Part shown: positions 25,641-52,091 of the stretch, one piece after another
How the letters are laid out: every line of letters starts with the position of its first letter
Position numbering within the stretch: position 1 is the first letter of the stretch
IMG/VR virus record: IMGVR_UViG_2778261638_000005
Span: 1 to 64,000 of that record
DNA: 64,000 bases
DNA from: a virus
Taxonomy: Duplodnaviria > Heunggongvirae > Uroviricota > Caudoviricetes
Reading direction: 5' to 3' (one strand)
Position numbers and translations under genes: made by a program
Notes under the pieces: model-generated
Seen by the model: the letters and a program-made list of their open reading frames with translations, nothing else
The model's database searches: none
Told to the model about the DNA's origin: nothing

Positions 25641-25785
25641 TTATTGAGGCGTAAAAAAATGCGCTATCGCGCTGGTATTACTTGATAAATCCTGCCGCCT
25701 TTCCCCGCCTGTATTCCTCCATCAGCCACTGCGCCGGTGTTATTCCCCCCAGGGTGGCGGCGTTAGGCATGCACTAAAGCGCGCA

Positions 25786-25859
25786 AAATCATTTGATACC
25801 GTTTTGAATTTTTTTTGATACCACCCAAAACGGCACAACGAAAAATTATTTGATACTAA
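25786..25859. repeat. Right-end transposase-binding-type repeats (ATTTGATAC motif x3)
   Basis: AAATCATTTGATAC 25786..25799, TTTTGATACC about 25814..25823, AAATTATTTGATACT 25843..25857; inverted relative to the left-end copies. Confidence 0.6.
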
Positions 25860-26593
25860 TCGGGAGTGCTTTTAGGGTATGGCTGAACCCTGAATAGCTT
25901 AGTATTTAGCCGCTTCCTTGCTCGCTTGTTCAGGAACCTGATGTAGCGATACTGATTAAATTTGTGCACCACGGCACGCTCTTTATTAGCCCGTAAATAC
26001 ACGCCTCGTTGTCCACCGCGCTTAATTGCGTTCATCGTTATCTCGTGATACCACTCACCATCCAGCTCGTAGAACGTGCTTTCATGGCTGCCAATAAAAT
26101 CAAAATTCGACGCCTGATACACAACGCCTGCGCGTCCGCAGCGTTCGTCAGCAAAGGACTGAACCCACTCCACTGACGGATACAGTAATCTGATAACTTT
26201 CAGCGCGTAGCTGATGGCCCGTGATTCAGAGTTGCGGGGCATGTCGTCGTGTAGCCACATGCGATTCAACTCCATATAGCCCCGGTTATCCGTTTCAAGC
26301 ACGACACGACGACCTGAGTTGGGGTTAAGGGCATATCCCCACTGGAGAACGCCAACCAGATCGCGTCCGCTGAATACTCCCAGGTGGAGGTAAGAGTTAT
26401 TCACAAAACGGCGGGAATAGTGCTTTGTCTGAATAATTGTGCGGGCCAGCCAGCAGGATATGGTTTCAACGCGCAGCTCCTTTGAACCATAGCCAACAAT
26501 CTGGCCTTCATACTCAATAACGCACGGTTTCGTCAGAATGCGTGATTTTTTCTCTTTTCCCACAATGTTTCTCCGTGGGATGCTCGCAGGCAT
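25856..26593 (-). CDS. mom: Mom DNA-modification protein (start codon uncertain)
   Basis: Directly downstream of and overlapping com, last gene before the element end as in Mu; about 245-aa ORF. Confidence 0.7.
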
Positions 26594-26702
26594 TCAGCAT
26601 TATGATGTGACGTTTGCAACGCGGACACCTGATTTCAATGTGATCAAAGGAATCCGCCTTAAATAACAGTTTGTTGCAGTTTTTACAGCGAATTGATTTC
26701 AT
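26514..26702 (-). CDS. com: Com zinc-finger translational activator of mom (62 aa)
   Basis: [32 protein letters not shown]..., Cys4 zinc finger, 62 aa, overlaps mom start; matches my recollection of Mu Com. Confidence 0.85.
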
Positions 26703-26776
26703 CTCACCTCCTTTGCATCAATTCGCCACTATCTTAAAAAACATCATGGGTTGAGTGTGGTTATTGGGGCATAATC

Positions 26777-26811
26777 GATCTGTATTACCGATCGATTTAA
26801 TTGATTCGATC
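26777..26811. promoter_or_regulatory. Cluster of three GATC (Dam) sites upstream of com-mom (Mu Pmom-type regulatory region)
   Basis: GATC at 26777, 26790 and 26808 within 35 bp; in Mu the equivalent cluster governs methylation-sensitive repression of mom. Confidence 0.65.
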
Positions 26812-27378
26812 GTCGTTTTCTATATGCGCTCGTTTCGCGGGGTGTTTTTTATACAGAGTTGACAGGGCCACATCGTAGATCAATGCAACCTGCTTGCGGG
26901 GGATTCCTTGTGCTAATAAACGCCCGGCCTGCTCCCATTCCGCTTTGGTTAGTTTAGGTGGTCGCCCACCAATACGGCCTTTATTTCTGGCGGCAGCAAG
27001 TCCAGCCATCGTTCGCTCGATGATTAGTTCTCGTTCCATTTCAGCCAGGGCACCCATAACGTGGAAGAAAAAACGCCCCATTGGAGAAGATGTGTCTATG
27101 CTGTCGGTCAGACTGCGAAAATTAATCCCTCGCTCCCGTAGTTCCCCGACGAGAGAAATCAGATGTTTCATGCTTCGCCCGAGGCGATCCAGTTTCCAGA
27201 CAACCAGCGTGTCACCTTTTTGAAGGCGCTTTAAAGCGCGTTTTAATCCCGGTCGGTCTGTCTTTGTCCCGCTTAATTTATCTTCAAATATTTGTTCACA
27301 TCCTGCACAAACAAGAGCGTTTCGTTGCAGGTCTGTATTCTGGTCATTTGTTGATACCCTTACATAGCCAATCAGCAC
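26797..27378 (-). CDS. gin: Serine DNA invertase, Gin/Hin/Pin/Cin family (193 aa)
   Basis: N-terminus MLIGYVRVSTNDQNTDLQ with catalytic Ser, C-terminal HTH; adjacent to invertible fibre segment. Confidence 0.9.
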   Translation of the reverse strand: MLIGYVRVSTNDQNTDLQRNALVCAGCEQIFEDKLSGTKTDRPGLKRALKRLQKGDTLVVWKLDRLGRSMKHLISLVGELRERGINFRSLTDSIDTSSPMGRFFFHVMGALAEMERELIIERTMAGLAAARNKGRIGGRPPKLTKAEWEQAGRLLAQGIPRKQVALIYDVALSTLYKKHPAKRAHIENDDRIN

Positions 27379-27432
27379 TCTGGATCTCCCGTTTAAAAGC
27401 GCAAATCATGCCATGCAGGCCGGAAACAACCA

Positions 27433-27460
27433 TTATCTAAAACCTCGGTTTACAGGAAAC
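27433..27460. repeat. gix-type recombination site (left inverted repeat) TTATCTAAAACCTCGGTTTACAGGAAAC
   Basis: 26 of 28 nt identical to the reverse complement of 30496..30523; fits gix/hix-type crossover sites. Confidence 0.8.
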
Positions 27461-28463
27461 GGTAAACAGGGCTGGTAACGCCGTTCAAAAGACAGGCGAT
27501 ACCTTATCCGGTGGGCTTACTTTTGAAAACGACTCAATCCTTGCCTGGATTCGAAATACTGACTGGGCAAAGATTGGATTTAAAAATGATGCCGACAGCG
27601 ACACAGATTCATACATGTGGTTTGAAACAGGCGACAACGGCAATGAATATTTCAAATGGAGAAGCAAACAAAGCACCACAACAAAAGACCTGATGAATCT
27701 TAAATGGGATGCTTTGTCTGTTCTTGTTAAAGCCCTTTTCAGCAGTGAAGTAAAAATATCGACAGTCAATGCACTGAGGATATTTAATTCATCTTTTGGT
27801 GCCATTTTTCGCCGTTCTGAAGAATGCCTGCATATCATCCCTACACGAGAGAATGAGGGGGAAAATGGTGATATAGGGCCACTACGTCCCTTTACGCTTA
27901 ATCTCAGAACTGGCCGCATAACTATGGGGCATGGTCTGGATGTTACAGGAGATATAACAACTAACGCCTGGGTGTATGCAAACAGGTTTGCTATTAATAG
28001 TGGCTCAACCTCATGGATTGATATGCGAAACCAGAATGTCATTTTTGGTAGAAACGCAGTATCAACAAGTTCTGCGCAGGCTTTGTTAAGACAAGACCAT
28101 GCAGAACGCAAATTTTTTGTCGGTGGACTTGGTAACTACCAGTTTGGTTTTTACATGATTAATAACTCAAGGACAGCCAATGGCACCGATGGTCAGGCGT
28201 ACATGGATAATAACGGTAACTGGCTTTGTGGCTCGCAAGTTATTCCTGGCAACTATGGCAATTTTGATTCCAGATATGTGAGAGATGTTCGCCTGGGTAC
28301 GCGAGTTGTTCAATTGATGGCGCGTGGTGGTCGTTATGAAAAAGCCGGACACGCAATTACCGGATTAAGAATCATTGGTGAAGTAGATGGCGATGATGAA
28401 GCCATCTTCAGGCCAATACAAAAATACATCAATGGCACATGGTATAACGTCGCACAGGTGTAA
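27441..28463 (+). CDS. Alternative tail-fibre C-terminal segment (Sv'-like), promoterless in the present orientation
   Basis: Frame is open back through the gix site (starts NLGLQETVN, the same junction peptide found in the expressed fibre); ends ...INGTWYNVAQV like the expressed fibre. Confidence 0.7.
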   Translation, partial: NLGLQETVNRAGNAVQKTGDTLSGGLTFENDSILAWIRNTDWAKIGFKNDADSDTDSYMWFETGDNGNEYFKWRSKQSTTTKDLMNLKWDALSVLVKALFSSEVKISTVNALRIFNSSFGAIFRRSEECLHIIPTRENEGENGDIGPLRPFTLNLRTGRITMGHGLDVTGDITTNAWVYANRFAINSGSTSWIDMRNQNVIFGRNAVSTSSAQALLRQDHAERKFFVGGLGNYQFGFYMINNSRTANGTDGQAYMDNNGNWLCGSQVIPGNYGNFDSRYVRDVRLGTRVVQLMARGGRYEKAGHAITGLRIIGEVDGDDEAIFRPIQKYINGTWYNVAQV

Positions 28464-28994
28464 ATGATGCAGCATTTAAAAAATATTAAGTCTGGAAATC
28501 CTAAAACGAAAGAACAATATCAGCTAACAAAGAATTTTGATGTTATCTGGTTATGGTCCGAAGACGATAAAAACTGGTATGAGGAAGTGAAAAACTTTCA
28601 GCCAGACACAATAAAGATTGTTTACGATGCAAATAATATTATTGTCGCCATCACTAAAGATGCCTCCACGCTTAACCCTGAAGGTTTTAGCGTCGTTGAG
28701 GTTCCTGATATTACAGCCAACCGCCGCGCTGATGATTCAGGAAAGTGGATGTTTAAGGATGGAGCTGTAGTTAAACGGATTTATACGGCAGACGAACAGC
28801 AACAACAGGCCGAATCACAAAAGGCCGCATTGCTTTCCGAAGCTGAATCAGTCATCCAGCCGCTGGAACGCGCTGTCAGGCTGAATATGGCAACAGACGA
28901 GGAACGCACACGACTGGAAGCATGGGAACGCTACAGTGTTCTGGTCAGCCGTGTGGATACGGCAAATCCTGAATGGCCACAAAAGCCTGAATAA
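28464..28994 (+). CDS. Tail-fibre assembly protein (U'-like), 176 aa
   Basis: Paralog of 29023..29556 (shared motifs [36 protein letters not shown]). Confidence 0.75.
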
Positions 28995-28999
28995 AAATT

Positions 29000-29019
29000 A
29001 AGGCCCGCTATCGGGCCTT
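29000..29019. terminator. Bidirectional hairpin AAGGCCCG-CTAT-CGGGCCTT between convergent tail-fibre assembly genes
   Basis: 8-bp stem; A/T-rich flanks on both sides. Confidence 0.5.
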
Positions 29020-29022
29020 GTC

Positions 29023-29556
29023 TCATTCAGGTTGTTCGGGAAATGTTACTGGCAGGCTGGAGGTGTCTGTAGATTCGACTTTCTGCGCATAGAGCATCCA
29101 CTCAGTTAATTTTTGTTTATTCTCGTCGGAAATGATGCCCAGCCGTAGCTGTGAGTCCCATAGCTGGGTTTTATCCCTGACAAGTTGCAACAGGCTTTGT
29201 TTTTCATTCTCTGCCTGCTGCCTTTGTTCCTCCTCGGTATAAGTTCGCTTTATCACTACGCCATCTTTGAACATCCATTTACCCGAAATATCAGCCCGGC
29301 GATTTGCTGTAATATCAGGAACCTCAACGACGCTTGCGCCTTCTGGATTAATTGCTGAAACATCCTTTTCAATACAAATAATAACGTCGTTGTGGTCATA
29401 GACCATTTTCAACGTATCAGGCTGAAAGTTCTTTTGTTCCTCATACCAGTTTTTCCCATCCTCTGTATAAAGCCATTTGATGTTAAATTGTTTCGTTAGC
29501 TGGTATTGCTCTTTTGTTTTAGGGTTGCCAGCAGTAATGTTTTTTAAGTGCATCAT
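29023..29556 (-). CDS. Tail-fibre assembly protein (U-like), 177 aa
   Basis: Follows the expressed tail-fibre gene; paralog of the + strand copy. Confidence 0.8.
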   Translation of the reverse strand: MMHLKNITAGNPKTKEQYQLTKQFNIKWLYTEDGKNWYEEQKNFQPDTLKMVYDHNDVIICIEKDVSAINPEGASVVEVPDITANRRADISGKWMFKDGVVIKRTYTEEEQRQQAENEKQSLLQLVRDKTQLWDSQLRLGIISDENKQKLTEWMLYAQKVESTDTSSLPVTFPEQPE

Positions 29557-29558
29557 CG

Positions 29559-31019
29559 TTAAATACTCCCCGCGTTATACCACGTCCCATTAATGCAATA
29601 CTGAATTGGCCTTGCCTGAGTTGTATCAATTAATTCATCACGGTTTCCGTTAACTGAACCTGTAACGACATAACCTGACCTGTCAGACCAGCCGGGACCA
29701 TTCCATGTCTGAACAGATGACAGACCGCCCAGGCGAATACCTGTAATAAACCTTGAGTTACATTCTGCCTGCGTATATGCACCAACATCCCCCGCAGAGG
29801 GTTTGCGGGTTGTGGTGTAAAACTCTGACCAGTTAGCTTCAAAGCCATAACCATCACGCGCTGAACGATAAAAGATACCGCCGTTCTTATAATTCACGCG
29901 GAACTGTACAGCAGGGCAACTCCCCGCATTCATATTGAAGTGGAGGATTAATGTCGATGCGCCACTGATATCTGCATCATAAACGCCGCTATTCCAGTTC
30001 CAGCCAACAGCTTTATCATTTGCAACCCTGCTTCCTGTTTGCCCTAAAGCAAATGCAGGCTGCTGGTTTTTCGTGTTGTAGTCTCTTCGCCAGCCAGGAG
30101 CATAAGCATCACCATGATTAATATAAGTGAATTGAGCGTTAGTAATTCCGCCACCGCTGGACGTGCTCGGGGTGGTTACACGGATGGTCATGGCTCCTTT
30201 ATTACCCATAACCTCAATAACGCAACCTGCAAGATGAATAGTTCCACAGCCAGTATCGGTAATAATTTTATTATTGCCGTATGACCATGAACATTTGCAC
30301 ATCCAGTATGGGTGATTGAATGCCCCTTGAGAATCCAGCCATTCAATCAATTGTGCCGTCGTCCAGTTTCCTGCACCTGTGCTAATAGCACTGTGAAAAG
30401 CGCGACATGCACCAATATTTTTTGTGAAAGTATCTTTTCCTGGAATATCTGCGCCGTTCTGGTTTTTCTGTAATGCGCCAGAAGCCTGATTTACCGTTTC
30501 CTGTAAACCGACGTTTTGGATAAACAGCGGCTTATTGGGAATATCTGCTCCGTTCCGGTCTTTTGCCAGACGGGCATTGGCATTATCCATCGCAATTTTC
30601 ACCGCTTTTGCGGTGGCTGCCAGCGTTTCACTGGGGCTGTCAGTGGCACTGGTTAGCTGAACGAGTCCTTTTTTGTTCAGGCTGGCATCATAGATATCCA
30701 GATTTTCACGTGCTGTACGCTGTGCTGATGCCCCGGCAGTTTTAATTTCACTGAGGTTATTTTTTATCAGCAGCGCGTTATTGCTCATAATGGCTTTAAT
30801 GGACAGTGCAAGCTGGTTTAATTTTGTTTTATCCGGTTGAATACCGGCTTCTTCCAGCGTGTTTAATAACTCCGCCTGCACAATATTAAACCAGTCCATG
30901 CCGGGCCATGTGATAACATTATTCCCGTCACCTTCTGAAAACCAGCGAACGATAGCACTACGCTGGGCGGATACGGGCGGCATGACGGTTACGCCGCTGT
31001 CGTTATCAATATAAAACAT
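29559..31019 (-). CDS. Tail fibre protein (S-like), 486 aa; constant N-terminus outside and variable C-terminus inside the invertible segment
   Basis: gix site lies in codons for GLQETVN at 30496..30523; repeated NGADIP(N/G)K motifs. Confidence 0.8.
   Translation of the reverse strand: MFYIDNDSGVTVMPPVSAQRSAIVRWFSEGDGNNVITWPGMDWFNIVQAELLNTLEEAGIQPDKTKLNQLALSIKAIMSNNALLIKNNLSEIKTAGASAQRTARENLDIYDASLNKKGLVQLTSATDSPSETLAATAKAVKIAMDNANARLAKDRNGADIPNKPLFIQNVGLQETVNQASGALQKNQNGADIPGKDTFTKNIGACRAFHSAISTGAGNWTTAQLIEWLDSQGAFNHPYWMCKCSWSYGNNKIITDTGCGTIHLAGCVIEVMGNKGAMTIRVTTPSTSSGGGITNAQFTYINHGDAYAPGWRRDYNTKNQQPAFALGQTGSRVANDKAVGWNWNSGVYDADISGASTLILHFNMNAGSCPAVQFRVNYKNGGIFYRSARDGYGFEANWSEFYTTTRKPSAGDVGAYTQAECNSRFITGIRLGGLSSVQTWNGPGWSDRSGYVVTGSVNGNRDELIDTTQARPIQYCINGTWYNAGSI
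30496..30523. repeat. gix-type recombination site (right inverted repeat) inside the tail-fibre gene
   Basis: GTTTCCTGTAAACCGACGTTTTGGATAA, inverted copy of 27433..27460. Confidence 0.8.
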
Positions 31020-31561
31020 TAGTTATCTCCGTCATGGTAAACAAATTTATAAATCTGATGTGCGGGTTTATATTTCTCCAGTAAACATTCCAGCGCACCC
31101 GATTCATAAACACGTAACGGCGTCAGAACATTATCCAGCACCGTTGCGTTGCGATAATTTTTAATACCGTAAATATTGACCTGCGTAACCCACTGGCCTT
31201 CTGTGGAATCCGTCAGCCTGACGGTAAAACCGTACTGTGCAGCCAGCCATTCATAAAAGCGCCGACTCAGATTGCCGGTCATACGCATTTTATTCGCGGC
31301 AGCCCGCTGGCGTTCGGACAAGGTGCCGTTTTCGCTGGTACAGTCCGGCAACCCCAGAAATGATTCCCACTCCCCCAGATACCAGCGGGATGTGGACGGG
31401 AAACGCTCCCGCAGCATTTGCCGCGCATCATCCGCCGCAGTGGCAATCACGTCGCTGATGGCCTGCGCCAGCGCAGATAATTTGCTGTCGGGGCTTTTAT
31501 TCCAGGCAAGCCCTGACGGCAGTAATTGCAGAAAGGCCGTCTGATAGGGTGTTACAGCCAT
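31019..31561 (-). CDS. Mu gp48-like tail protein (180 aa)
   Basis: Position between baseplate J and fibre; family resemblance to YmfQ/gp48 (recollection). Confidence 0.6.
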   Translation of the reverse strand: MAVTPYQTAFLQLLPSGLAWNKSPDSKLSALAQAISDVIATAADDARQMLRERFPSTSRWYLGEWESFLGLPDCTSENGTLSERQRAAANKMRMTGNLSRRFYEWLAAQYGFTVRLTDSTEGQWVTQVNIYGIKNYRNATVLDNVLTPLRVYESGALECLLEKYKPAHQIYKFVYHDGDN

Positions 31562-32634
31562 TCAATTGTCCCCGGTGTTAACAGTTCCGTATTCTCCGAA
31601 CGCTGGATCTCTGTCGGGAAACGCACTTCAAAATCATCCAGACCGGTAACACCTGCCACCGCACGGATAATACGGGAGGGGGCAAGTGCGCCGCCCGGCG
31701 TCACCTCATTAAAAAACATGGTATTAATGGCGTGGGTAATAGCCTGTTTCAGTTCGGCTGTCTTCGGTGATATATAAATCCGTGGATTTACCGGCTTTGC
31801 CTTTGGCGCAAATACAGTGACATTTACACCGTCAGGCTGTCCGACAATCAGACCGGTGATCGGGTCAGTATGACCGGCGATATAATCTGCCACGCGTTCC
31901 ACGTCTGCCGGTTGTGGAAAAATATTGCTCCGGTTATCCATAACAAACGTCACCCCGACTGTGCCACCGCCTTTCCATGTCGGAAAACACCAGGCACGGG
32001 TAACGCCGCTGACTTCACGTGCCCAGCGGACGTAATCAAACTGATTACCGCCGAACGGAGGATACTGGACACGATATTCCAGCCGTGACAGCAGCTCCGC
32101 TGCACTCTCAATATCAGCCCCACCGGAAAACCCTTTTACAGTGATGGCATCGGAAACAACACAGGCAACCGGGGTGATCAACGTTAAAAGGGTATTCTCA
32201 CCGGTATTTCCTGCTTCACCGGCAGCCAGTGCGGTAACGGTAATTTCCGTCGTTCCTGCACGGTCAATCACAATGGCATCAGCCAGGCTGTAAACCACAC
32301 CATCAGCACGCTGCCAGCGTGTACCGGCAGGAATGGTGGTCGCTGCCGATGTGGTGACAGTCAGCGGGCCGCTGGCGGCTGTCGCCTGTTTGCGGCGCAC
32401 GCCCCAGAACCGGCAGTGCTCCAGCAACTCATCTTCATCTGCTGTCGACGGGATAATCTGCCGTCCAACCCATGAAATATGCTCGTGACAACCGGCAGCA
32501 AGGCCCGCCTGAGCATAAGCAATGGCACTCAGCGTTTTTTCACGGGCCTGAGGCCAGCTACCCGGCAGGCGCTGTTCAATATTCTGTTCTGTACGGGCAA
32601 TCAGCGATGATAATGTCGGTGGTGAATAAGCCAT
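31552..32634 (-). CDS. Baseplate J-like protein (Mu gp47-like), 360 aa
   Basis: Size and position in Mu-type baseplate cluster. Confidence 0.7.
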   Translation of the reverse strand: MAYSPPTLSSLIARTEQNIEQRLPGSWPQAREKTLSAIAYAQAGLAAGCHEHISWVGRQIIPSTADEDELLEHCRFWGVRRKQATAASGPLTVTTSAATTIPAGTRWQRADGVVYSLADAIVIDRAGTTEITVTALAAGEAGNTGENTLLTLITPVACVVSDAITVKGFSGGADIESAAELLSRLEYRVQYPPFGGNQFDYVRWAREVSGVTRAWCFPTWKGGGTVGVTFVMDNRSNIFPQPADVERVADYIAGHTDPITGLIVGQPDGVNVTVFAPKAKPVNPRIYISPKTAELKQAITHAINTMFFNEVTPGGALAPSRIIRAVAGVTGLDDFEVRFPTEIQRSENTELLTPGTIEWL

Positions 32635-33072
32635 TTAAACCCCGTTAAATGCTGCTTTAAACTCATAAGGAATAACGGAACCATCCGGTAATGTCAGTGC
32701 AATGTAGAGGTATAACCAGCCCTGATGTAACTGTTCCGCTCTGATGTTAATCGCACTTACCCGGCCCGCTGTTTTCAGCCATTCCAGCGCCTCTTCGGCA
32801 TACCCTCTGGCGCGTTCCAGCGTATCCGGTGTGGCTTTTTCACGTGATAACAGCCATAACCGCGAACCGATGGGGCGGTCGCGGTAACTGTCACCCCACC
32901 ATCCACGGCGATCATCTGAACCATCCGGCAGCGTGTCAGAATCCAGCGCGCGCCGGTCTGTAAACAGGGAGATTGTCACATCGGTTGTCAGGCTGTCGTC
33001 GGTCAGCATATCAATGCCATCCTGTGCAATATCGCCGCGTCCGTTCGTCCAGATAATGGCTAAATCGGTCAT
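32635..33072 (-). CDS. Baseplate wedge protein (gp25/W-like; Mu gp46-like), 145 aa
   Basis: Size and position. Confidence 0.6.
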   Translation of the reverse strand: MTDLAIIWTNGRGDIAQDGIDMLTDDSLTTDVTISLFTDRRALDSDTLPDGSDDRRGWWGDSYRDRPIGSRLWLLSREKATPDTLERARGYAEEALEWLKTAGRVSAINIRAEQLHQGWLYLYIALTLPDGSVIPYEFKAAFNGV

Positions 33073-33662
33073 TGCATTGGCCCCGTGGTTCCGCCGCTGT
33101 CGCCACGGTGGATATGCTTATCCGTCGATTTGCCATTGATGATGGCATCCGGGGCAGTAATATTGCTGTCGAACTGGCTTTTACCTTTAACGCCCAGACC
33201 TTTCTGGATCTCAACGTCGCCGGTAAACGTGGTTCTGGGTGTGTCAACGGTCATACTTTCATCAGCGTAAACCTCAACCGTTTTACAGGTAATGATGCAG
33301 CGTCCGTCCTTTGTCAGCCTGATACGATGCCCCTCGTGGTGGTAAATGCCTGCATCACCCGGTTCAAGATTTGTCGGGCGGTAGCGGCGGTCTTCCACCA
33401 CAACGGCAATCCCCTGATCACGTTGTGCGCCTACACAGGCAATCAGCGCCTCTGCGCCCGGCAGGGGAACGCTGAAATGCCCGTAATTTTGCAGGCGCTC
33501 CACTTCATCAGATTCCTCATCATCCAGCAGGCCGACCTGCAGGTTCTGAACCTTTCGCCCGTCGTTAATCACGTTAACAACAGCGCGCGCAAGCATCAGG
33601 CGCACACGACGCATCAGCGGCGTCAGCAGGCGGTTCAGGGCGGAATCATTTACTCTTTCCAC
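33069..33662 (-). CDS. Baseplate assembly/spike protein V-like (Mu gp45-like), 197 aa
   Basis: Size and position. Confidence 0.6.
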   Translation of the reverse strand: MERVNDSALNRLLTPLMRRVRLMLARAVVNVINDGRKVQNLQVGLLDDEESDEVERLQNYGHFSVPLPGAEALIACVGAQRDQGIAVVVEDRRYRPTNLEPGDAGIYHHEGHRIRLTKDGRCIITCKTVEVYADESMTVDTPRTTFTGDVEIQKGLGVKGKSQFDSNITAPDAIINGKSTDKHIHRGDSGGTTGPMQ

Positions 33663-34789
33663 GGCGGCGTTTTCTCCGGGTGTCTGCGATAATAATCTTC
33701 AACCAGCGCATCAATACCGCCGTTACTGTCGCCGCCTTTCCTGTTTTTACGGTCGCTTTCAACCGGCACCAGAAAGCCTTCGCGTGGTGCAAGGCTGACG
33801 CGGGTTTTCAGCCCGTCCTGGTCATTCAGTATCAGGGTGACTTTGCTGACCAGTAATTCCGTGGTTTTGATGGCATATTTCGAGGCATCAATAGTGACCA
33901 GCAGGTTCGGCATCCAGAGTTGCCCGTCCTTGCGAGTCCATCCGTCAATTTCAGCCTCAAAGGTGATGGATTTTGCCAGTCTGCGGCGTTGCTCACGCAG
34001 GGCGCGGGCCTGTGCATCCTTCGCCGTAATTTTGCTGTCAGCAATGATGATCATCGGTCTGTAACGGGTTACATCACTGTCAGTGGCGGTCCCTTTCCGG
34101 GAGACGATACTTTTCGCATCAATATCATCACCCTCAGCACCGTTTGCGCGGGCATACCCCTTGACGGTGTATTCGCTGAACCGGTCGCGGAAGTCTTCCT
34201 CAAAATCCAGTGTCAGCAGATTTTCTCCGAGAACCAGCTCATCAGTGGCTGTGCTGGCAGCCCGGCTGAATACCAGCTCTCCTGCGGCATTGCTGGTCAT
34301 CAGTACACCGCGTGCGCGGGAGGCACGCACCAGCGCCTCATAAACGGTTTCTGAATGGTCCAGCGTGAAGCCGGGAAAAGCTGCCGAACTTTCCTTATCG
34401 GAAAGCTCCCAGCGAACGGTAACGCCATAAGGAGCGCACAGGTCACGCGCAATCTGCTCCAGTGTGCGGTTTTTCCACTGTCCGCCACTGTAAACGGCAG
34501 CACAGTCAATCAGGTCAGCCGTTTTGTCACGTCCGGCGATAGTGATTTTCATGCTGTCAGCGGTCATCTGGCGTCGCCGCGAATCGATATAACCGGTGCA
34601 GACAATCTGCCCGTCGATTTCCAGCGTGAACGCCTTCCCCGGTGCCAGCCCGGATAAATCTGTACCCGGTGGCACATTCACCCCCAGCTCAAAATATCCG
34701 GCTACGGATTCAATGGAGCGGGTGACAGAGACTGACGTCCAGCCGGTAAAAAGCCTGCCATCCGTTCGCAGCGTGACGGTATTACTCAT
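33650..34789 (-). CDS. Baseplate hub / late control D-like tail protein (Mu gp44-like), 379 aa
   Basis: Size and position after DNA-circularisation-protein gene. Confidence 0.65.
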
Positions 34790-36269
34790 TAATCACCTCA
34801 ATACTGACACCACCGGGAACAAACAACGGGTTGCTGATACCGTTCCTGCGGGCCAGCCGTTGCCAGTTCCGGCTGTTTCCTGTGTAACGGTACAGAGCCA
34901 CCATTGCAGGCATCGTCTCCGGCAGGCGGTGCGTTTCACTGCCCGCCAGTTGCAGCCCGCGTTTTTCCAGGTCGGCAACAACCAGCAGACGCAGTTGCGT
35001 AAGCTGAACGCTGTCTGTCGAAAAGCCCTGCTCAGATGCCGTCAGAATGACGGTATCCAGCGCTGCCCCCAGCATGGTGGCTGTTTTTCCGATATCGGAC
35101 ACACTTTCAAATACCGGGGGCGTGGCTGTACCACTGTCTGAAAAGGATACCTGTGAAAAGCCGCCGTCCGGGGTTATGGCAGTTAACTGTAACTGTCCCT
35201 GTGTGACGGTAGCAGATGTGCTGCTGGCCCCGCTGGCTGTGCCGGTTGTGGTGGACGGAGCATCCAGTACAGGTGCACGGGCGGCATTATCCATCCGGCG
35301 ACTGAAATCCAGTGCCGCAGTCAGTGCCTGGCTTGCTGCCTCCGCCCGGTATGTCTGCGCCGCTGCCAGCATGACGTAGTTCAGTGTGGCAATATTTTTT
35401 TCTGCAACCGGACTGTTGTACGAGGTTGTGATTGTCCCCTGTCTGCCTGTGGTGGCGGCATGGCGACGTTCGAATCGCTGCGCCAGACGGTTCCAGGTGG
35501 AAAATGCTGTCCGGGTATCGCATAACGATGAAACGCCGGACAGCGCCCCCATCAGCGAGGAGGCCAGCATGGCAGGCTGGTTAATCAGGCTGGTCACAGA
35601 GCCTTTCATCGCAGAAAGCGATCCCATCAGACCGCTGACAGTCTGCGTAACCCCCAGATTGTCCACCGCATCACTGATATCATCGATGACACCGGTTACA
35701 GCTTCCATCACGGCGGTTGCCGCCGCAGTGCCATCTTTTACGGTCTGCCAGACAGAGGACAGCGTATCTCCCAGAGAACCGGTTACAGCAACGGCCTGTG
35801 CCGGTACGGCTGCACTGGTGTCTGTCTCTGAGTCCGGGGCAGTATCCTGCAACGACGGATAAACGGTAACGGTGAACGCGTAATAATTCAGTTCATCCGC
35901 TTTAGTGCGGCATTCCCATGAATCCACCATGACGTCCACAGTGCCGAAATCAGGATGTACCAGCTCACCGCTACCCGGAGCATCAAGAGCATCCATCAGC
36001 GCACCCGCTTCATCTCTGGCTGTTTCTGCGTTGCTGTTCAGAATGCAGGCGCTGAATGTACGGGAGCGAAGCTTTTTCCCCAGGTCATTGACGCCGCCGG
36101 TATCACGTAACGGGTACTCGCGTTTAACCAGGCGACGTCCGCCAGCCTGTTTTTGCTCCTCGATGACGAGAAACGGCACGTTACGAAACGTGCCTTTGCC
36201 GGTTGTTTTCTTACCACCGCTGATTTTATCCCGGACAGCATTAACGGCATTTAAAGCATCTTCAAACAT
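34782..36269 (-). CDS. DNA circularisation protein N-like (Mu gp43-like), 495 aa
   Basis: Position after tape measure; Ala/Thr-rich middle typical of the family. Confidence 0.65.
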
Positions 36270-36273
36270 GGTT

Positions 36274-38346
36274 TTACCAGCCTGTAATGTAGTTATCGCC
36301 CGCGTAAATATTCAGCCCCATACCGTCCTCGGTGACGCGGGAACTGGTCAGACGTAACCCCTCGCCAAGTTCGACGCGCAGCGAGGCTTCCGCATTCACT
36401 TTTTGTTCCTGCGGTTCCTTATCCGGGGCCGTCCATTTCTGATACAGGTCGGTTACAAAACCGCCCAGATACTCCCCGGCGACACTGCCCAGCGTGGCAC
36501 CGGCAACCGTACCCAGCGGTCCGGCAAGGCTGCCAACGGCACCGCCGAGCCATGCACCGGCTGTACTGCCAATTGCGCCTGCTTTTTCATGGGTTGACGC
36601 CTGCTCATCCATCAGGACGGGGGCAAGCTGGAGTGCCCCCATTACCGGGCCACCCAGACGTGACAACGCACGACCGGCACCTTTCCCCATCCAGCCCAGC
36701 GCCCCGGCACCTTTTGTCACAACCCGACCGATCGCACTGCCTGCAAGTTTGTTTCCGATACCGGAAAACCACCCGCCAACAGCACGCCCGGCATCAGCCA
36801 GCTTTCCGACCGTTCCCGTAACCAGTTGCCCGGCAGCACTGCCTGCAAGCCTGCTCAGAAGACCGGATTTACCGGGTAAAGGTAATGGTGCAGGCCGTGC
36901 TGTTACCGGTACGCCGGGTGGGGGTAATGCCAGTACAGGGCGTGGTGCAGGTAATGCCAGCGGCTGTGGCCCGGACAGCAATAACGGCTGGCGGGGTAAC
37001 AGCGGGGCCATTCTTCCGCCGCTCCGTCCGCGACGACCGCCGCCACTCCCGTAGCCACCAAATCCACGGGGCCAGTTGATGACAAACACACGCTGAATGC
37101 CAATACCCTGCAACAGCGTCTCAGACGTCATGGCATCCGGGACCGGCAGACCTGCCTGCCCACGTTTGCGGTTTCGCATCCAGCGCCACATACGACGCCC
37201 GGTTTTAAACGGATAACTGGCAACCTGCCATGAGGGTTTTGCCACGGCCCAGCCTGCTCTCAGGGCTTTATTGGCAAGCCAGACAGACACCAGAACAGCA
37301 GCCAGTTTTTTCAGGCTGACAATATTCTGGTCAACCCATGCCAGCGCATCTTTACCCGGTTTCAGCCAGCGCCATAATTCCTGCGCCGCGATTTTTACCG
37401 TTCTGAACGTGGTCAGAAATTTCTGACCAATGTTTTCTGCCAGTGCATCAAGTTCCCCGGATTTATCCGCCATGTCGTGCCAGTTAAGCACCCGGCGCAT
37501 CTCGTTCTTGATTTCTTCAAAGGGGCCGCTGTTTGCCACCTTTATGCGAAATTCAAGCAGGTTGGCTTCCATCTGGGCGAACATCCCGTCCCAGGAGTTC
37601 ATCGCACTGGCCTGTGCACCTTTTGACTGTTCTGACAGCGTACTGAATACCGTCAGAATGGATTTCATGCCCAGCTTGCCCTTTGTACCCAGATCACGGA
37701 TTTTTTTAACGTCCGTTCCCGTTGCATCCGCCAGCGCCTGATAAACGTTGATACCGTAACCGGTCAGCAGGTTGGCATCCGCCGCTGTGATTTGCTGGCG
37801 GGCAAACATCTGTTTCAGTTGCAGTGAGGCACCCTGTGCAGTGGGTAAATCCCAGCCGTGCATGGCCCCCTGATCCTGCAACATGGTGATGAACTGTTTC
37901 GTCTGTTCATCCGTCATGCCGAAGCCTTTCGACGAACGGATCTCATCAAGAACACCACTCAGCCCCCACGTGGTGTCCTTCGCGTTCTGCTTCGCCCAGG
38001 CCATCATGGCCTGCGCTCTGACCTTATCGCCGTGATACAGCGAGTTCATGGCGATGATCTGCTGCTCACGCTGGGCGGCTGCACCAATAAACAGTTTATT
38101 GGCGGTGTAACCCACGCCAGCGATACCCAGCGCCCCGGCTGACAGCATTCGGAATGTACGGGTTGACAGTGAACCCATTCTGTCAATGGCACCAGAAACG
38201 CGCACAACCTCCATACGCAGGGCACGAAGGGAACTTTGCCCGCTACGGGACAGGGCGTTTATCTGGTTCGAATACTGGCGGGAACGCCGGGAAAGATTGC
38301 CATTAAGATCAATAATGACAGACGCCTTTAAGCGTTTCCCGGTCAT
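36274..38346 (-). CDS. Tail tape measure protein (690 aa)
   Basis: Long helical N-half, Gly/Ala/Pro-rich C-half; between tail chaperone and baseplate genes. Confidence 0.7.
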
Positions 38347-38490
38347 AGAGATTTCCTGATTTAACGGTGATATTGAGAGAGGGTTTTAGCCTGCTGGCAG
38401 TGCCGGAAAAAGCGGGACAGCGGGAGAGACAAGGCCCATTCCGGGCCACTTTTCAGAATAACGCCAATCGCTGTCGCCGCTTTCTCAATA

Positions 38491-38925
38491 TCATTCCGGC
38501 ACCGCAGCCACTCGCCCCCGTTCTTGTGTCAGCGATGCTGCCACAGCCATGTCGTACATTTCTGTAGCCAGCGACAGACGCTGGAAGTCATCAACAGACA
38601 GCTTGCGCATCAGCGCCAGCGATAACGGGCCTTTGATGCAACCCACGCTGGCAATCTGTCGGCGCAGCATTTCCAGTCCCATCCGGGACGGGGAACTGAC
38701 CAGCACCGGGCCTTCCTTGCTCATTACCAGCTTTTCAGCAGCCGCCTGGGCATCAATCAGATCGCCTGCGGTCAGTTCACGCAGCGTCACGTCATACTGC
38801 ATTTCAGTCTCGTCACCGGTGCCGAACGGCAGGCCGTCTTTCAGTTTCAGCACGCCGGACTGAATTTCTGCCACAATGCTGTCATGCAGTTCCTGTGCTT
38901 CAGGACCTAAATTCATTTCGTCCAT
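38491..38925 (-). CDS. Tail assembly chaperone-like protein (Mu gp41-like), 144 aa
   Basis: Position between tube and tape-measure genes. Confidence 0.5.
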   Translation of the reverse strand: MDEMNLGPEAQELHDSIVAEIQSGVLKLKDGLPFGTGDETEMQYDVTLRELTAGDLIDAQAAAEKLVMSKEGPVLVSSPSRMGLEMLRRQIASVGCIKGPLSLALMRKLSVDDFQRLSLATEMYDMAVAASLTQERGRVAAVPE

Positions 38926-38934
38926 TGTTTCCCC

Positions 38935-39291
38935 TTATGCAATGCGTTTGCTTTGTTTTGCCATCAGTACCAGCGAAATTTCGCCGCCGTCGTTTTTCGG
39001 TTCATCTGCCTGCCAGGCATTCGCCATCATCCAGGTTTCACCGGTGTCTGCCTGAAACTCTGCCGTGATGTTTTCCCAGCCGATGATTTCATCCAGACCG
39101 ATATCACCACCGCCCGGAATTTTGCATTCCAGCTTTGCGGCACGTGGTTTACCTTTCCAGCCATAAACCCGCGAGCCGGTCACTTCTTCACGGGTGATAC
39201 CGGAAGGCGTGAAGGAGGCACCTTCCATCGTTTCAAGCTCCATGCCATTGACACGGATGAACGCCACCCCCTGACGCTGATTTCCAGCCAT
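38935..39291 (-). CDS. Tail tube protein (Mu M/gp40-like), 118 aa
   Basis: Size and position directly after sheath gene. Confidence 0.7.
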   Translation of the reverse strand: MAGNQRQGVAFIRVNGMELETMEGASFTPSGITREEVTGSRVYGWKGKPRAAKLECKIPGGGDIGLDEIIGWENITAEFQADTGETWMMANAWQADEPKNDGGEISLVLMAKQSKRIA

Positions 39292-39300
39292 AAATGCTCC

Positions 39301-40788
39301 TTACAGAATGAACTGAACTTGTGCCGCGAAAATGCGGAACTGGTTAATCAGATTCGGGCCGCACAGCACATCAAGACGGTCTTTGTCGTCCTTGTTACGT
39401 GCCACATACAGCTCCTCTTTGAACGTGTCGAAATCCTCGACCAGTCCGGCGTTTTCCCATTCTTCAAACAGTGCCAGCAGCTCCGTTTTGATCACGGATG
39501 GCGTCACCACGGCCTGACCGGTGGCAAAGCGGGTGCCATCACTTGCCAGCTTGTAGTTCGGGAATTTCTGCGTGATGCGGGTTCGCAGTGAATAACGCAG
39601 ATAACTCAGCGTGGCGATGGTATTCACGTTCAGATAAGACGGATCACTGTCACCGTACTTGTTTGTGCGGTACATCGTGATCATGCGTTCAATCTGCATT
39701 TCACCACCATCATTCACGTTAAACGTGGAGATGCCGTCAAACAGCAGCGCATTACGTTCTGACCAGGTGAAACGATCCCCCACCGCAGGCGGCATTCTTC
39801 CGGGCAACGTCAGCGTCTGGAGAGGACGCGCCGGGTCGATGGAAAGCGCCTGGCTGGCAACGGCACACAGTGTGGCGGCGTACAGATATGACGGTTCCGG
39901 TGCACCGGCAATCCCCATACAGGAGATCAGATGATCATTACGACTGACACCAAACGTGGAAATATCCCCATACGTGCCGGACAGCACTGTCACGGCAAAG
40001 CCATCAGCCTGATTGACCGGTCCCCAGCGTTCCTGCAATTCAGTGCGTAACAGATTCAGGTTCGGTTCATCGGTATAGGGCATCACAATATATTTGTATT
40101 GCAGATCGCCCATTCCCGCGATACTTGCGCTGATATCCGGGTTGCCATTTTTCCCGGAGGCGGCTTTGAATGCCGTGATAATCCCGTAAGGGGTGGTTTC
40201 ACCCGCGTAATAGTTCCAGCGCACATCCACGGCAGATAATGCACCCGTAAATTTTGCACTCAGAACCACATCTGCATGGGTGTCATCATCCCCGCTGTCT
40301 GCGCGAACTTCTGCCGTCACCGGTAAATCCGGCTGGCCTTTGATTCGGGCAACCAGCAGGTCAGCCAGCGCCGCTCCCGTTGCACCTGCTGCGACAGATA
40401 CCGCCAGTCGCTGACCGGCAATGTAAGTCACAAGCGAGCCGTTTTCGCCTGCCGTTCCTGACAGTGAAATTTCACCGACAGCAGCATTACCGGTGCCGTT
40501 CCCCTGCGGAATACACCACAGCTCCGCCACGCGGTTAGCGTTCAGGAATGCATCTGCCATCAGTGCCAGCATGGAACCCTGACCAAACGCCGCACTGGCC
40601 TGTGAGCCGGAACGGATACGGACAGGCACGTCTGGTGCCGCACTGGCTTTACTTCCGCTTTGCCCGAACATCAGCACGCGCTGACGGGGTGCCGGTGTTC
40701 CGCTGACGGCATTACTGTTATCAAATTCGATATACGTCAGAGGAACGCGAACATCTGACGGGATCGCGTTAAATGAAATATCGCTCAT
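39301..40788 (-). CDS. Contractile tail sheath protein (Mu L/gp39-like), 495 aa
   Basis: Size and position; myovirus sheath-type composition. Confidence 0.8.
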
Positions 40789-40991
40789 TTCGATTTACTC
40801 CGTTTTTTCGGCGCAGCGTCGGTATCATCCGCCGTGTTTTCGGTGCTCCCGACTTCAACCACATCACCGGCTGCAAGGCGACGTATCCAGAAACTGTTAC
40901 GGGGCTTTTCTTCTCCCTCCGGAGCCAGTAATTTCATCGTGAGCGGGTCACGGATGGCTTTTCCCGCTGCGGGTTTAATTTTCAGCATCAT
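40785..40991 (-). CDS. Small Mu gp38-like protein (68 aa)
   Basis: Position, translational coupling. Confidence 0.45.
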
Positions 40992-41523
40992 GATCCTTTT
41001 CCTGATTCACATTGATATGTGCGGCAAATTCCGGGGTTTCGTCCGGGAATTTCCAGGTCTGCCAGTGACGCTCGTAATCATCCAGCGAATCCATGTCCAC
41101 CACGGACGGCAGCGGGGTAGTGCCACTGAACAGAACGCCGTAAAGCACCACACCGGCATTGATACGGTTGTCGTCACAAAGATTTCTGACCTGCGTCAGG
41201 CTCATCCCGGTGGTCGGGCCAAACGTCTGACCGTTAACGCCGGCAATCAGTCGCTCCACAATCTGATAAATACCGGGCCGGTTTACCGGTTCCCCGTTCA
41301 GCAACTCCGCCACGACAAAAAATGCCCAGCGACTTTCAACTTCCCGACGCGTACGCCCCTCACCACAGCCCATCCATGCCAGAAATACCGATGGCGGGGC
41401 CAGAAAGAGACGGTGCACATCCTCGTTAGTCCATGTGCCGGTAAGGGGTTCCACCTGCCGCAGGGTTGCCCCAAACGACTCACGAACGCGCGCCAGCAGT
41501 GCGGCTTCGGTTTCTTCCAGCAT
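40975..41523 (-). CDS. Mu gp37-like head-tail joining protein (182 aa)
   Basis: Position in Mu order. Confidence 0.55.
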   Translation of the reverse strand: MLEETEAALLARVRESFGATLRQVEPLTGTWTNEDVHRLFLAPPSVFLAWMGCGEGRTRREVESRWAFFVVAELLNGEPVNRPGIYQIVERLIAGVNGQTFGPTTGMSLTQVRNLCDDNRINAGVVLYGVLFSGTTPLPSVVDMDSLDDYERHWQTWKFPDETPEFAAHINVNQEKDHDAEN

Positions 41524-41948
41524 CAGATAAACCCCTTCTGTTTTCGTGAAAAAACAGGCGGATCAGACTGAACCTGCACAAGATCCTCTCCCTCCGGCGA
41601 CGCTGCCGTTCTGCTTTCCACGCCGGGATCTGTTTTGCCATCGCGCACCTGTTCCAGCCAGCGCACCGTGTCCCTGTAAGTTGCGGTGATCTGCTCGGTG
41701 GGTTGTGATTCATTCAGATAAAACCAGGCCACCACGCAACACTGCCGTTTCAGCAGTGAGGGGACGACGGTAAGCGGCAGAACAAAGCGCGCGGCGAGAT
41801 AGCCATCAATAAAAGCCGAAGCATCTGCCAGTGCCTGTTCTGCCACGGCATCATCCGGCTGCCCGTCCGCTGTTTTAGGGCGGGTGAGAATATCCAGCCG
41901 CGTACGTGTATAGCGGGCGCACAGGTCATTTACCGTCGCGTAATTCAT
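41523..41948 (-). CDS. Mu gp36-like protein (141 aa)
   Basis: Position in Mu order. Confidence 0.55.
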   Translation of the reverse strand: MNYATVNDLCARYTRTRLDILTRPKTADGQPDDAVAEQALADASAFIDGYLAARFVLPLTVVPSLLKRQCCVVAWFYLNESQPTEQITATYRDTVRWLEQVRDGKTDPGVESRTAASPEGEDLVQVQSDPPVFSRKQKGFI

Positions 41949-42355
41949 GCATCCGCCTCAGCCAGCGCCGCTTTGATTTGCGCACTGCTCACCGGTTCCC
42001 CCAGCGCCGCACTGACGGCTTTCACTTTGGGTTCTCCCCCTGCGGTAAAGTGCTCCGGGTTTGCCTTATCCAGACCGGCAACGGTCGCACGGATACGGGT
42101 ATTCAGATCGCCCACACCCAGAACGTCCAGCCCCCCAGCCTCAGCGAGCGTTTCTGCTGACGATGCAGATACCACAGACAGCACGCTGTCGGCACGAATG
42201 ATCGCCAGTTGTTCTTCGGTGACTTCCACGGTGTTTTCGCCACGCGTAAAGGCGATTCCGGCGCGGCGGTAGACCGGACGAAGGCATTTAATAATCGCCG
42301 TGCAAGTGATGCGAGAAGTGTCCAGCCGTTGTGAATTAAGCGAAGTGCCTGACAT
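41945..42355 (-). CDS. Mu gp35-like protein (start uncertain)
   Basis: ORF downstream of major head gene. Confidence 0.4.
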   Translation of the reverse strand: MSGTSLNSQRLDTSRITCTAIIKCLRPVYRRAGIAFTRGENTVEVTEEQLAIIRADSVLSVVSASSAETLAEAGGLDVLGVGDLNTRIRATVAGLDKANPEHFTAGGEPKVKAVSAALGEPVSSAQIKAALAEADA

Positions 42356-42389
42356 AACACATGCTCCTCCTTTTCCTTTAAATCAGGTT

Positions 42390-42413
42390 AAAAGGCGGTC
42401 TGAACCGCCTTTT
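42390..42413 (-). terminator. Strong hairpin AAAGGCGG-N6-CCGCCTTT immediately after the major head gene
   Basis: 8-bp perfect stem with U/A-tracts on both sides. Confidence 0.55.
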
Positions 42414-42421
42414 AATGACGG

Positions 42422-43339
42422 TTACAGGTAGTCAGCGACAACCAGTTGCAGCTTGCCCTTCATCTCGTTGGAGACGGTGGTATTGCCATCCGCGAACAGT
42501 TCACGGTTAAGCAGTTGCTCTGCGGCTTTTTCCAGCCCGACCGGTACAACGATATGCGTCGGCTTCAGGCCCAGCTTCTTACCGCCATCACCTTCAAAAG
42601 ATCGCATCAGTTGCCAGCCCTTCCAGAGGTTATCCAGCGTCAGATCGCCTTTTACCGCGACAGCCATCTGCCAGAAGCCGTAACCGGCAGCACGGCGGGC
42701 GCTGGCACCAAACAGGAACTCGTTATCCATAAAAACGTGGTCGTCATCGATACGGGTACGTGCGACCAGCTCCGGTTTGCGGCGCTCCTGGAAAATCAGC
42801 GGTTTGACTGCGCGGGAGCAGTCCAGCAGATAGAACGGCAGACCGCTGAAGCTGTCCTGCTCAACGATGTTGGAGGTATTAACCGCGCTGCCCGTGCCGT
42901 CCACATTCGGATATACCGGATGCTCCTTGTCGAAGAAGTTCTGACCGTCATAGCACGGCTGGGTAAAGCCATCTTTCAGAAGTTTAAAAATCAGCTCATC
43001 CGGCTGAACTGCCGCAGAACGGCCCATCTCCTGAAAAATCGGCGCATAAATACCCAAATTGTCATCGTCAAAGTCATCGCGGGAAATACCCACGGTGCCT
43101 TCAAACGTTTTATTGGCGATGGAGTAGCCATGCGCTTCCATTTGCTGAATGGTTCGCTTACCCACCCATTCTTTCAGGGTCGGGAATTTACCCAGCCAGC
43201 CATAGGTATTACTGCGGGTGGAAGAGTTCACCACCATTGCAATTTTGCTGTACTGCGACGGGGCGTCTTCAAGACCGCCCTGAAAATCCTTACGCCAGGA
43301 GGTCATCAGGGCTTTAATGGATGCCGGGGTGACAATCAT
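42422..43339 (-). CDS. Major head subunit (Mu T/gp34-like), 305 aa
   Basis: Follows protease/scaffold gene; followed by a strong terminator. Confidence 0.8.
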   Translation of the reverse strand: MIVTPASIKALMTSWRKDFQGGLEDAPSQYSKIAMVVNSSTRSNTYGWLGKFPTLKEWVGKRTIQQMEAHGYSIANKTFEGTVGISRDDFDDDNLGIYAPIFQEMGRSAAVQPDELIFKLLKDGFTQPCYDGQNFFDKEHPVYPNVDGTGSAVNTSNIVEQDSFSGLPFYLLDCSRAVKPLIFQERRKPELVARTRIDDDHVFMDNEFLFGASARRAAGYGFWQMAVAVKGDLTLDNLWKGWQLMRSFEGDGGKKLGLKPTHIVVPVGLEKAAEQLLNRELFADGNTTVSNEMKGKLQLVVADYL

Positions 43340-44421: not shown

Positions 44422-44617
44422 GTCCTGCTGCTCATCATGGTTTGTGAGCAGTCAGTTTGCGGGAGGTGCGGGAAAATCTGGGGTTATGCTATTTGAGTAC
44501 TGGAGAAAGAAAGTGGAAGGAAGATAAAACGGGATTCATACACCGTTAAATACCGGTTTAAAAATCCCGTGGCGCGTTTTAAAAAATCTGTGCGGCTGAT
44601 TTCATGTCTGATTCCGT

Positions 44618-45088
44618 TTATTGCCTCAGAGCGGCGCTGACGCGTTTTCTGATGGCATCAAAAATTTCCTGTTCCCCGGTCTTATCCAGCCCCATATAAG
44701 GACGCGCAGGAACGCCTGCCGGGCGGGGTGCCATATCGGGTGTACCGCCCCACTGATGAATGGCAGCATAAATTTTTGGCGAACCAATCAGGGCATAATC
44801 CTGTCCATAATCGGTGGTAATGCTGCGCGCCAGATCGCCATGCAGGGTAAGAATACTGCCCGGAACAAATCCATGATCCTGACGCCATGCCTGCCACGAA
44901 TCGCTCCATGCTTCCCAGCCTTTCCCTGTATCCGGGTCTGCCTGCCGTTCAAATGCCTGTTCCGTGGATGACAGCAGCGCCGCAGCCATCACACGGGGAA
45001 TGGCGCGGTCACGTGTAACGGTTCCCAGTTCATCCAGTGCAAGCTGAATACGTCGCACATCCACGGCAACGTTCATATCAAGACTCAC
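44618..45088 (-). CDS. Virion morphogenesis protein (Mu G/gp31-like), 156 aa
   Basis: Position after F. Confidence 0.65.
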   Translation of the reverse strand: MSLDMNVAVDVRRIQLALDELGTVTRDRAIPRVMAAALLSSTEQAFERQADPDTGKGWEAWSDSWQAWRQDHGFVPGSILTLHGDLARSITTDYGQDYALIGSPKIYAAIHQWGGTPDMAPRPAGVPARPYMGLDKTGEQEIFDAIRKRVSAALRQ

Positions 45089-49578: not shown

Positions 49579-49585
49579 AACCCTC

Positions 49586-52000: not shown

Positions 52001-52091
52001 GCTTCCCTGAAAAAATGCGCTGATGGCAGTCTAAAAAATCAGATGGCAGGTGCGGGATTATGGTGACAGGAAATAACCGGCAGGATGCCGG

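Follow-up and report, generated by a model that had tools for sequence, protein, structure and literature searches.

Transposable prophages are commonly recognised and delimited by a target-site duplication of 5 or 6 bp and by 5′-TG...CA-3′ ends (PMC8705779). A Mu-like prophage within a 64,000-nucleotide viral sequence (IMG/VR record IMGVR_UViG_2778261638_000005, positions 1 to 64,000; this whole stretch is called the window below) seemed to fit this scheme poorly. A preliminary description, made from the sequence alone, placed its termini at a TG (25770) and a CA (62686). The pentamers next to these positions, AGGCA at 25765-25769 and CCCGA at 62687-62691, are located as it stated and do not form a repeat. 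A second placement, at 25758 and 62702, would make a duplication of the pentamer GGTGG, and either mis-called termini or a rearrangement after insertion was offered as the reason for the missing repeat. Where, then, does the element begin and end, and what did its insertion do to the target?

Junctions, empty site and terminal sites

The initial identification of the locus as a transposable prophage of the Mu kind, with repeats for transposase binding at its ends, is upheld by three predicted sites at each end and by the Pfam matches of its early proteins. The element lies with its mom end on the left and its repressor/transposase end on the right (Table 1). Over most aligned blocks it is 98-99% identical to an annotated copy in strain S6, the tail-fibre region being more diverged, and the gene set of the S6 copy includes Mu-type head, tail, lysis, Mor, Gam and Com/Mom genes. 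On the minus strand, 26797-27378 encodes a Gin/Hin-type invertase, and beside it stand opposed tail-fibre/assembly cassettes at 27615-28994 (plus strand) and 29023-31019 (minus strand). Together they form an invertible host-range segment (26797-31019) like the G segment of Mu, and no other part varies more among the copies compared.

An empty site was sought by joining the flanks at the termini first proposed and searching complete E. coli genomes with the resulting 800-nt query. The query spans 804 nt in 537 records, with a top identity of 99.4%; the proposed termini had therefore taken out host bases. In NZ_AP022036.1, where the replication protein P gene is uninterrupted, the site reads GGCATGCACCCGAAAC, with one GCAC only; across the insertion point the gene runs ...GGCGGCGTTAGGCATGCACCCGAAACTTCGCC.... 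The left flank of the window agrees with this gene as far as 25774 (...GGCATGCAC) and the right flank from 62684 onwards (GCACCCGAAAC...). Host sequence thus continues up to 25774 and is taken up again at 62684, so that a GCAC stands on each side. The flanks are halves of a single gene, which they match base for base once one GCAC is deleted.

These comparisons fix the junctions of the element at 25775 and 62683 and its target-site duplication as the 4-bp GCAC. The true ends lie five bases (left) and three bases (right) inside the termini first proposed, and the tips are 5′-TA...TA-3′ rather than TG...CA. The TGCAC at 25770-25774, which included the supposed left tip, is host sequence found in the empty site. 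Two of the checks suggested at the outset gave an answer: the related prophage with an empty site has a junction that differs from either proposed placement, and homologous ends in other Mu-like elements also put the termini at 25775 and 62683. The guess that the termini had been mis-called was correct, and a perfect repeat appears once they are moved. A rearrangement in the window after insertion is excluded by the empty site, and the insertion was a simple one.

The Mu-like phage is nested in a resident phiV10/epsilon15-like prophage (window positions 1-25774 and 62684-64000), whose joined flanks are 95-97% identical to phiV10. The insertion disrupts a replication gene of its host prophage. 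It removes the last ~30 codons of the minus-strand P gene and has probably left the resident prophage defective in replication. Other prophages have been hit in the same way: the annotation of Stx phage records LC727881 and LC727895 shows Mu-like insertions, and a further one lies in a tape-measure gene (L024).

Table 1. Features of the Mu-like prophage and its insertion site (window coordinates)
Feature	Position	Strand	Details	Basis
Whole Mu-like prophage	25775..62683		36,909 bp; 5′-TAAAGCG...CTCTATA-3′	Eight intact copies, empty site and gene content
Left copy of the 4-bp target-site duplication	25771..25774	.	GCAC	Window equals empty site through 25774
Right copy of the 4-bp target-site duplication	62684..62687	.	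GCAC	Window equals empty site from 62684 on
3′ fragment of host-prophage replication protein P gene	25678..25774	-		Maps onto WP_088376889.1 (L001); 4-bp removal restores frame
5′ fragment of replication protein P gene	62684..63376	-		Empty-site comparison
attR (mom-end) module, predicted sites	25775..25871	+	97 bp; R1 25775-25799 (core 25791-25799); R2 core 25813-25821 (TTTTGATAC, one mismatch); R3 core 25848-25856	
MuB-like AAA+ target-DNA activator	58393..59325	-	310 aa	Pfam Phage-MuB_C, AAA_22
Transposase	59399..61486	-	695 aa	MuA-like N-terminal winged helix, integrase-like DDE core, Mu-transpos_C
Ner-like small HTH regulator	61489..61761	-	90 aa; between repressor and A genes	Pfam HTH_35
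CI-type repressor	61815..62450	+	211 aa	Pfam Phage_CI_repr, HTH_3
attL (repressor-end), predicted sites	62500..62683	-	L3 core 62513-62521; L2 core 62555-62563; L1 62659-62683 (core 62659-62667)	

The terminal sites support the same boundaries. As first described, each end carries three sites of the ATTTGATAC type in inverted orientation, with cores on the plus strand at the left and on the minus strand at the right; all of them point inward, and the outermost copies have AAATCATTTGATAC in common. The exact 9-mer ATTTGATAC occurs seven times in the window against 0.57 expected, a count that none of 100 shuffles reached, and five of the seven fall within the two end regions. The remaining matches, at 2400-2408 in the resident prophage and at 46818-46826 inside the Mu-like element, are isolated and probably due to chance. 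Measured from the inner end of each terminal core, T25775 and A62683 are both 25 nt away and thus in register (TAAAGCGCGCAAAATCATTTGATAC and TATAGAGAGGTAAATCATTTGATAC). The similarity does not extend as far as the TG and the CA, which are out of register with each other: from where the GATAC core ends on its inner side, they are 30 nt and 28 nt away.

Core-to-core spacings are 22 and 35 bp in attR, where R3 overlaps the mom stop codon, and 104 bp (L1-L2) and 42 bp (L2-L3) in attL. The ends of Mu have a similar plan, with L1 followed after a gap of ~100 bp by L2-L3, and with R1 and R2 22 bp apart. The L1-L2 spacer (62606-62655; ...GAAAAATCCGGGAGGAAAGTGGATCAAACGGGATTTGATGGGAT...) is, by eye, ~78% identical over ~46 nt to the attL spacer of the Mu-type prophage in E. 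coli W (L011 37640-37690). The transposase sites that flank the two spacers are unrelated, and the Sp18-like attL discussed below is without the spacer. The shared stretch may serve as a conserved site for DNA bending or for a host factor, or it may be a scar of recombination. Given the Mu-like layout and this similarity, the paired-end complex is probably built as in Mu.

A constant 4-bp duplication in independent insertions

Nine further copies of the window element were read in other genomes, and eight of these are intact. The eight lie in different E. coli genes, and the bases at which they start and end are identical throughout: all start TAAAGCGCGC and all finish ...CTCT(C/T)(T/C)ATA. 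Their 4-bp duplications are TTAA, TCAC, GGCT, TATC, TGCC, TTCG, AACA and CTTA. Just beyond the left repeat the neighbouring base varies among the copies, and the final element base is invariably A, which together exclude a fifth duplicated base. Reading frames agree with this count. In 8/8 interrupted genes, deletion of 4 bp (or of 1 or 7) reopens the frame across the junction, and deletion of 5 never does; taken alone the frame test equates 1, 4 and 7 bp, and it was paired with the visible repeats and with two direct empty-site matches. At the glpT insertion, for example, the flanks joined with a single GGCT give intact glpT at 296 of 296 positions.

More distant relatives behave in the same way. 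Five Sp18-like elements from STEC encode transposases 77.6% identical to that of the window, keep the tip-to-core distance of 25 nt, and have all made 4-bp duplications (GATG, AGAG, TAAT, CCCG and AGAC). Two of the GenBank records involved, LC727881 and LC727895, carry these 4-bp repeats under the depositors' label ‘duplication due to insertion’. The Sp18-type end was found in 231 of 5,426 complete E. coli genomes. Scans of IMG/VR with exact tip patterns returned 3 and 2 contigs only, none with both ends, and these contigs were left out of the counts. A perfect 4-bp duplication is present in all 14 intact insertions (the window, the eight copies and the five Sp18-like elements), and its length is thus constant over 14 independent events.

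This constancy bears directly on whether the element might follow canonical Mu geometry, with 5′-TG...CA-3′ ends and a 5-bp duplication that point mutation or slightly mis-called ends have blurred. Such behaviour is that of phage Mu and of the E. coli W prophage, and a TG and a CA are indeed present at 25770 and 62686. However, that TG belongs to host sequence, the proposed tips are 2 nt out of register with each other, and removing 5 bp breaks the interrupted frames. The fifth base differs between the two sides in 11 of the 14 insertions; in the other three (TTAA, TATC and TAAT) the target itself has an A at that position by chance, so that 5 bp would formally fit as well. Canonical geometry is therefore a very improbable account of the window, and the 5-bp duplication expected at the outset does not hold for this lineage.

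A second alternative supposes that a deletion, an inversion or recombination between copies removed or replaced one flank after insertion. Copies with such a history do exist. The ninth copy (L009, in NZ_CP066032.1) has no duplication (CCTC against TAAT), and it is a rearranged copy because its two flanks belong to different genes, one to an SDR oxidoreductase gene and the other to ycjO. In NZ_CP077479.1 the best matches to the two ends are ~400 kb apart. Both look like chromosome rearrangements, made by the phage or by recombination between copies. For the window such a history is most unlikely, since its flanks fit one uninterrupted gene at 99.4% over 800 nt, minus one GCAC.

The repeats might, thirdly, reflect microhomology at a preferred site, as in site-specific or homology-guided integration, and not a staggered cut. 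Short repeats arise in this manner in other systems, and some weak target bias is possible. All 14 insertions have a purine two positions before the duplication on its left side (G in 10 of them), and at the corresponding position to the right 12 of the 14 have G or C (C in seven), which hints at a weak palindromic preference of the form G-N-[NNNN]-N-C in what is a small sample of 14. Against microhomology, no tetramer recurs among the 14 duplications, the 14 loci are unrelated, and the tips of the element contain none of these tetramers. Moreover, the element has genes for a DDE transposase and for a MuB-like ATPase; no integrase was found among the five early-region proteins scanned, and none is listed in the annotated near-identical copies. 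We give this explanation very little weight. The placement at 25758 and 62702 has practically none: GGTGG does stand at 25753-25757 and 62703-62707, but both copies, along with the bases up to the junction, lie in the uninterrupted gene, so they are ordinary occurrences in gene P and not a duplication.

Cassette exchange on a Mu backbone

The gene plan at the right end follows that of Mu, with the DDE transposase gene adjoining the MuB-like AAA+ gene near one end of the element, downstream of the repressor and ner-like genes. The transposase itself is only 22-24% identical to MuA. Its N-terminus matches Pfam HTH_Tnp_Mu_1 and PDB 1tns, and its central part gives weak matches to rve_3 and to the ASV/RSV integrase cores in Pfam and PDB sequence searches. 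It has no match to PF02914 (DDE_2, the MuA catalytic core), a search in which the MuA of the E. coli W prophage scores 453 bits. Alignment to MuA (D269, D336 and E392) identifies D308, D374 and E414 as the catalytic residues, with 39 residues between the second D and the E, compared with 55 in MuA. The protein falls in PHROG 310. Among phage transposases it is 57% identical to that of Yersinia phage Tongde, ~43% to that of Haemophilus phage SuMu and ~31% to those of the D3112 group, with RcapMu-like and BcepMu-like phages below the last.

The E. coli W prophage offers a natural control. Its transposase is MuA-like (663 aa), its ends are TGAAGCGGCGCACGAAAAACGCG... and ...GAATCAATACA, with tips TGAAGCG and ...CAATACA, and its TG...CA termini are flanked by a 5-bp duplication, GCGGC. 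From 25872 to 58386 the window element is ~97% identical to this prophage wherever the two align, with several diverged patches within. Only two blocks are specific to the window: 25775-25871 (97 bp) and 58387-62683 (4.3 kb), the latter containing B, A, the ner-like gene, the repressor and attL. The end sequences have therefore been inherited together with the transposase gene. That ends 36 kb apart were exchanged along with this gene is good evidence that the transposase works on these end regions.

On the shared backbone the two elements agree in genome plan and in most genes, in having three sites at each end, in a MuB-type partner, and in the MuA-like N-terminal and Mu-transpos_C C-terminal domains of the transposase. 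Their L1-L2 spacers are similar in part, as are the opening bases of the mom-end tip (TAAAGCG in the window, TGAAGCG in the Mu type). They differ in the sequence of the transposase sites, which are of the ATTTGATAC type in the window, in TA...TA as against TG...CA tips, in a duplication of 4 as against 5 bp, and in the repressor, which is of the CI type in the window and the c repressor in Mu. Alignment of the ends with those of E. coli W shows different transposase-site sequences, and MuA sites are absent from the L1-L3 and R1-R3 positions. The marks of Mu proper, namely a PF02914 core, TG...CA termini and a 5-bp duplication, are thus all missing from the window element. It shows instead the traits by which we define an Sp18-like group of cassettes: its transposase belongs to the 695-aa lineage, its sites are of the ATTTGATAC type with the terminal core ending 25 nt from the tip, and its duplication is 4 bp long.

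Which component determines the length of the duplication can be judged from a natural combination. Strain WS1933D pairs a window-type transposase (94% identical) with a B of the Mu type that shares 99.4% identity with its E. coli W counterpart, and its duplication still measures 4 bp. Duplication length thus follows the transposase and the ends and not B, and we infer that the transposase rather than B sets the stagger.

The B gene has been swapped independently of the A gene among the copies. Copy L004 has a B that matches the Mu-type protein of E. coli W at 99.4% identity, and the identical B accession recurs in L009 and L010. The B proteins of the window, L002 and L003 are only 44% identical to that type, which in E. 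coli W is encoded beside a Mu-type A. L005 and L008 encode a third type, 70% identical to the B of the window.

A distinct transposition geometry among Mu-like phages

The reading that we favour, with a probability of about 0.9, is a simple, unrearranged Mu-like insertion at 25775..62683 in a phiV10-like gene P, made by a non-Mu cassette that would cut its target with a 4-bp stagger. This cassette would consist of the 695-aa DDE transposase, the MuB-like ATPase and the three predicted ATTTGATAC-type binding sites at each end. The transposase would bind L1-L3 and R1-R3 and pair the ends, and the terminal sites would position its active sites at the tips. By analogy with the established chemistry of Mu, the 3′-OH of the terminal A of 5′-...TA-3′ would be exposed at both ends. 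The exposed 3′ ends would then be joined to target phosphates staggered by 4 bp, and repair or replication of the gaps would yield the 4-bp duplication. Binding sites, cleavage position and stagger are all read here from genomic scars. MuA depends on a terminal CA, and TA ends might be expected to work poorly. That they do work is argued by the many near-identical copies at different sites and by viable phages.

The viable phages are Yersinia phages vB_YpM_5 and vB_YpM_6, plaque-forming members of Muvirus in which the block from A to attL is 96% identical in nucleotides to that of the window. The transposase of vB_YpM_5 is 97% identical in amino acids, and the tips in its record are those of the window lineage (TAAAGCG... 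and ...CTTCATA), 25 nt from the core. Since both records are of phage isolates, neither can reveal a duplication. The ‘circular’ record of vB_YpM_5 (MT374853.1, L012 9182-9260) links the tips through ~79 nt of unrelated DNA (ggcaggtgttctacaggg...gtgaatat), which is probably host DNA or an assembly artefact of heterogeneous packaged ends. The record of Yersinia phage Tongde likewise has window-type tips 25 nt from the core, with host genes beyond both of them, a single hint that virion DNA in this lineage may have variable host DNA at its two ends, as expected of Mu-like phages. Klebsiella phage Kp4866-3 has TG... and ...TA tips at 25 nt; its record reaches 2-3 nt past each, and no duplication is readable.

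The Sp18-like elements, which comprise Sp18 of E. coli O157:H7 and phages within the Stx phages LC727881 and LC727895, share the transposase lineage and the site type. Their mom-end tip begins with TA, as in the window element. At the repressor end they have a canonical ...CA-3′ tip (TGTAACC...), where the window has ...TA-3′. Their backbone is ~64-74% identical in nucleotides where aligned, and their B protein is 70% identical to that of the window. The element in the window is an ordinary member of a phage lineage common in E. coli and Yersinia.

Among integrase-superfamily enzymes, staggers of 4, 5 and 6 bp occur according to the enzyme. In the PDB search the core of the window transposase came out closer to the ASV/RSV integrase cores than to the MuA core. 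Retroviral integrases differ from it in domain architecture, the window protein having an ATPase partner and multi-site ends, and the likeness is a mechanistic analogy only.

For transposable phages, a 2021 survey gives a duplication of 5 bp for Mu and of 6 bp for B3 (PMC8705779). According to the same source, TG...CA was conserved in all described Mu-like and B3-like phages before Leptospira proved to harbour TA-TA prophages, which make 6-bp duplications, and TA-TA prophages in other bacteria were left to be investigated. By their published description the Leptospira prophages share 5′-TA...TA-3′ termini with the window element; they differ in a B3/Tn552-type transposase, a 6-bp duplication and an unrelated host group (PMC8705779). 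D3112-like (Casadabanvirus) and B3-like Pseudomonas phages have a CI-like repressor and three sites at each end, as here, and the window transposase is nearer to the D3112 group (~31% amino-acid identity) than to MuA. However, D3112-like genomes start 5′-TGT (PMC4378225). Their duplication lengths also differ from the 4 bp seen here, with 6 bp in B3 (PMC8705779) and 5 bp in the D3112-like phage Ab30, in which a shift of five base pairs brings the forward and reverse insertion maps into line (PMC5977238).

No paper on a 4-bp duplication in Mu-like phages was found in the openly searchable literature, where the lengths given are only 5 bp (Mu, D3112-like) and 6 bp (B3, Leptospira). Term searches of the papers on SfMu, the Yersinia phages (PMC10434027), SuMu, PluMu, the Mannheimia phages and O157 Sakai (Sp18) yielded no statements on duplications or ends, and in the CC119 paper behind LC727881 and LC727895 the word ‘duplication’ does not occur. 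The only trace of the 4-bp repeat seems to be in the feature tables of these two records, and the 4-bp/TA geometry seems not to have been written up. On balance, we lean towards regarding this as a third, undescribed enterobacterial transposition cassette. It would combine a 4-bp stagger, a mom end invariably terminating in TA-3′, another end with TA or CA, and an integrase-like core between MuA-like end domains, and it would replace the Mu cassette on a near-identical backbone with either type of B.

A common E. coli lineage breaks both of the rules by which transposable prophages are delimited, and its ends therefore get mis-called, as happened in the window. The finding also answers the question raised by the Leptospira prophages (PMC8705779), as TA-TA prophages do exist outside that genus. 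If the cassette is what we take it to be, nature has carried out a swap experiment, and closely matched E. coli phages could be used to test which region of a Mu-family transposase governs the spacing of the cuts and how strict the need for a terminal CA is. The same backbone occurs with the Mu cassette and 5 bp, with the window cassette and 4 bp, and with a window-type transposase beside a Mu-type B and 4 bp. This natural series would provide a ready system for learning what fixes the stagger and the end dinucleotide in this family of transposases.
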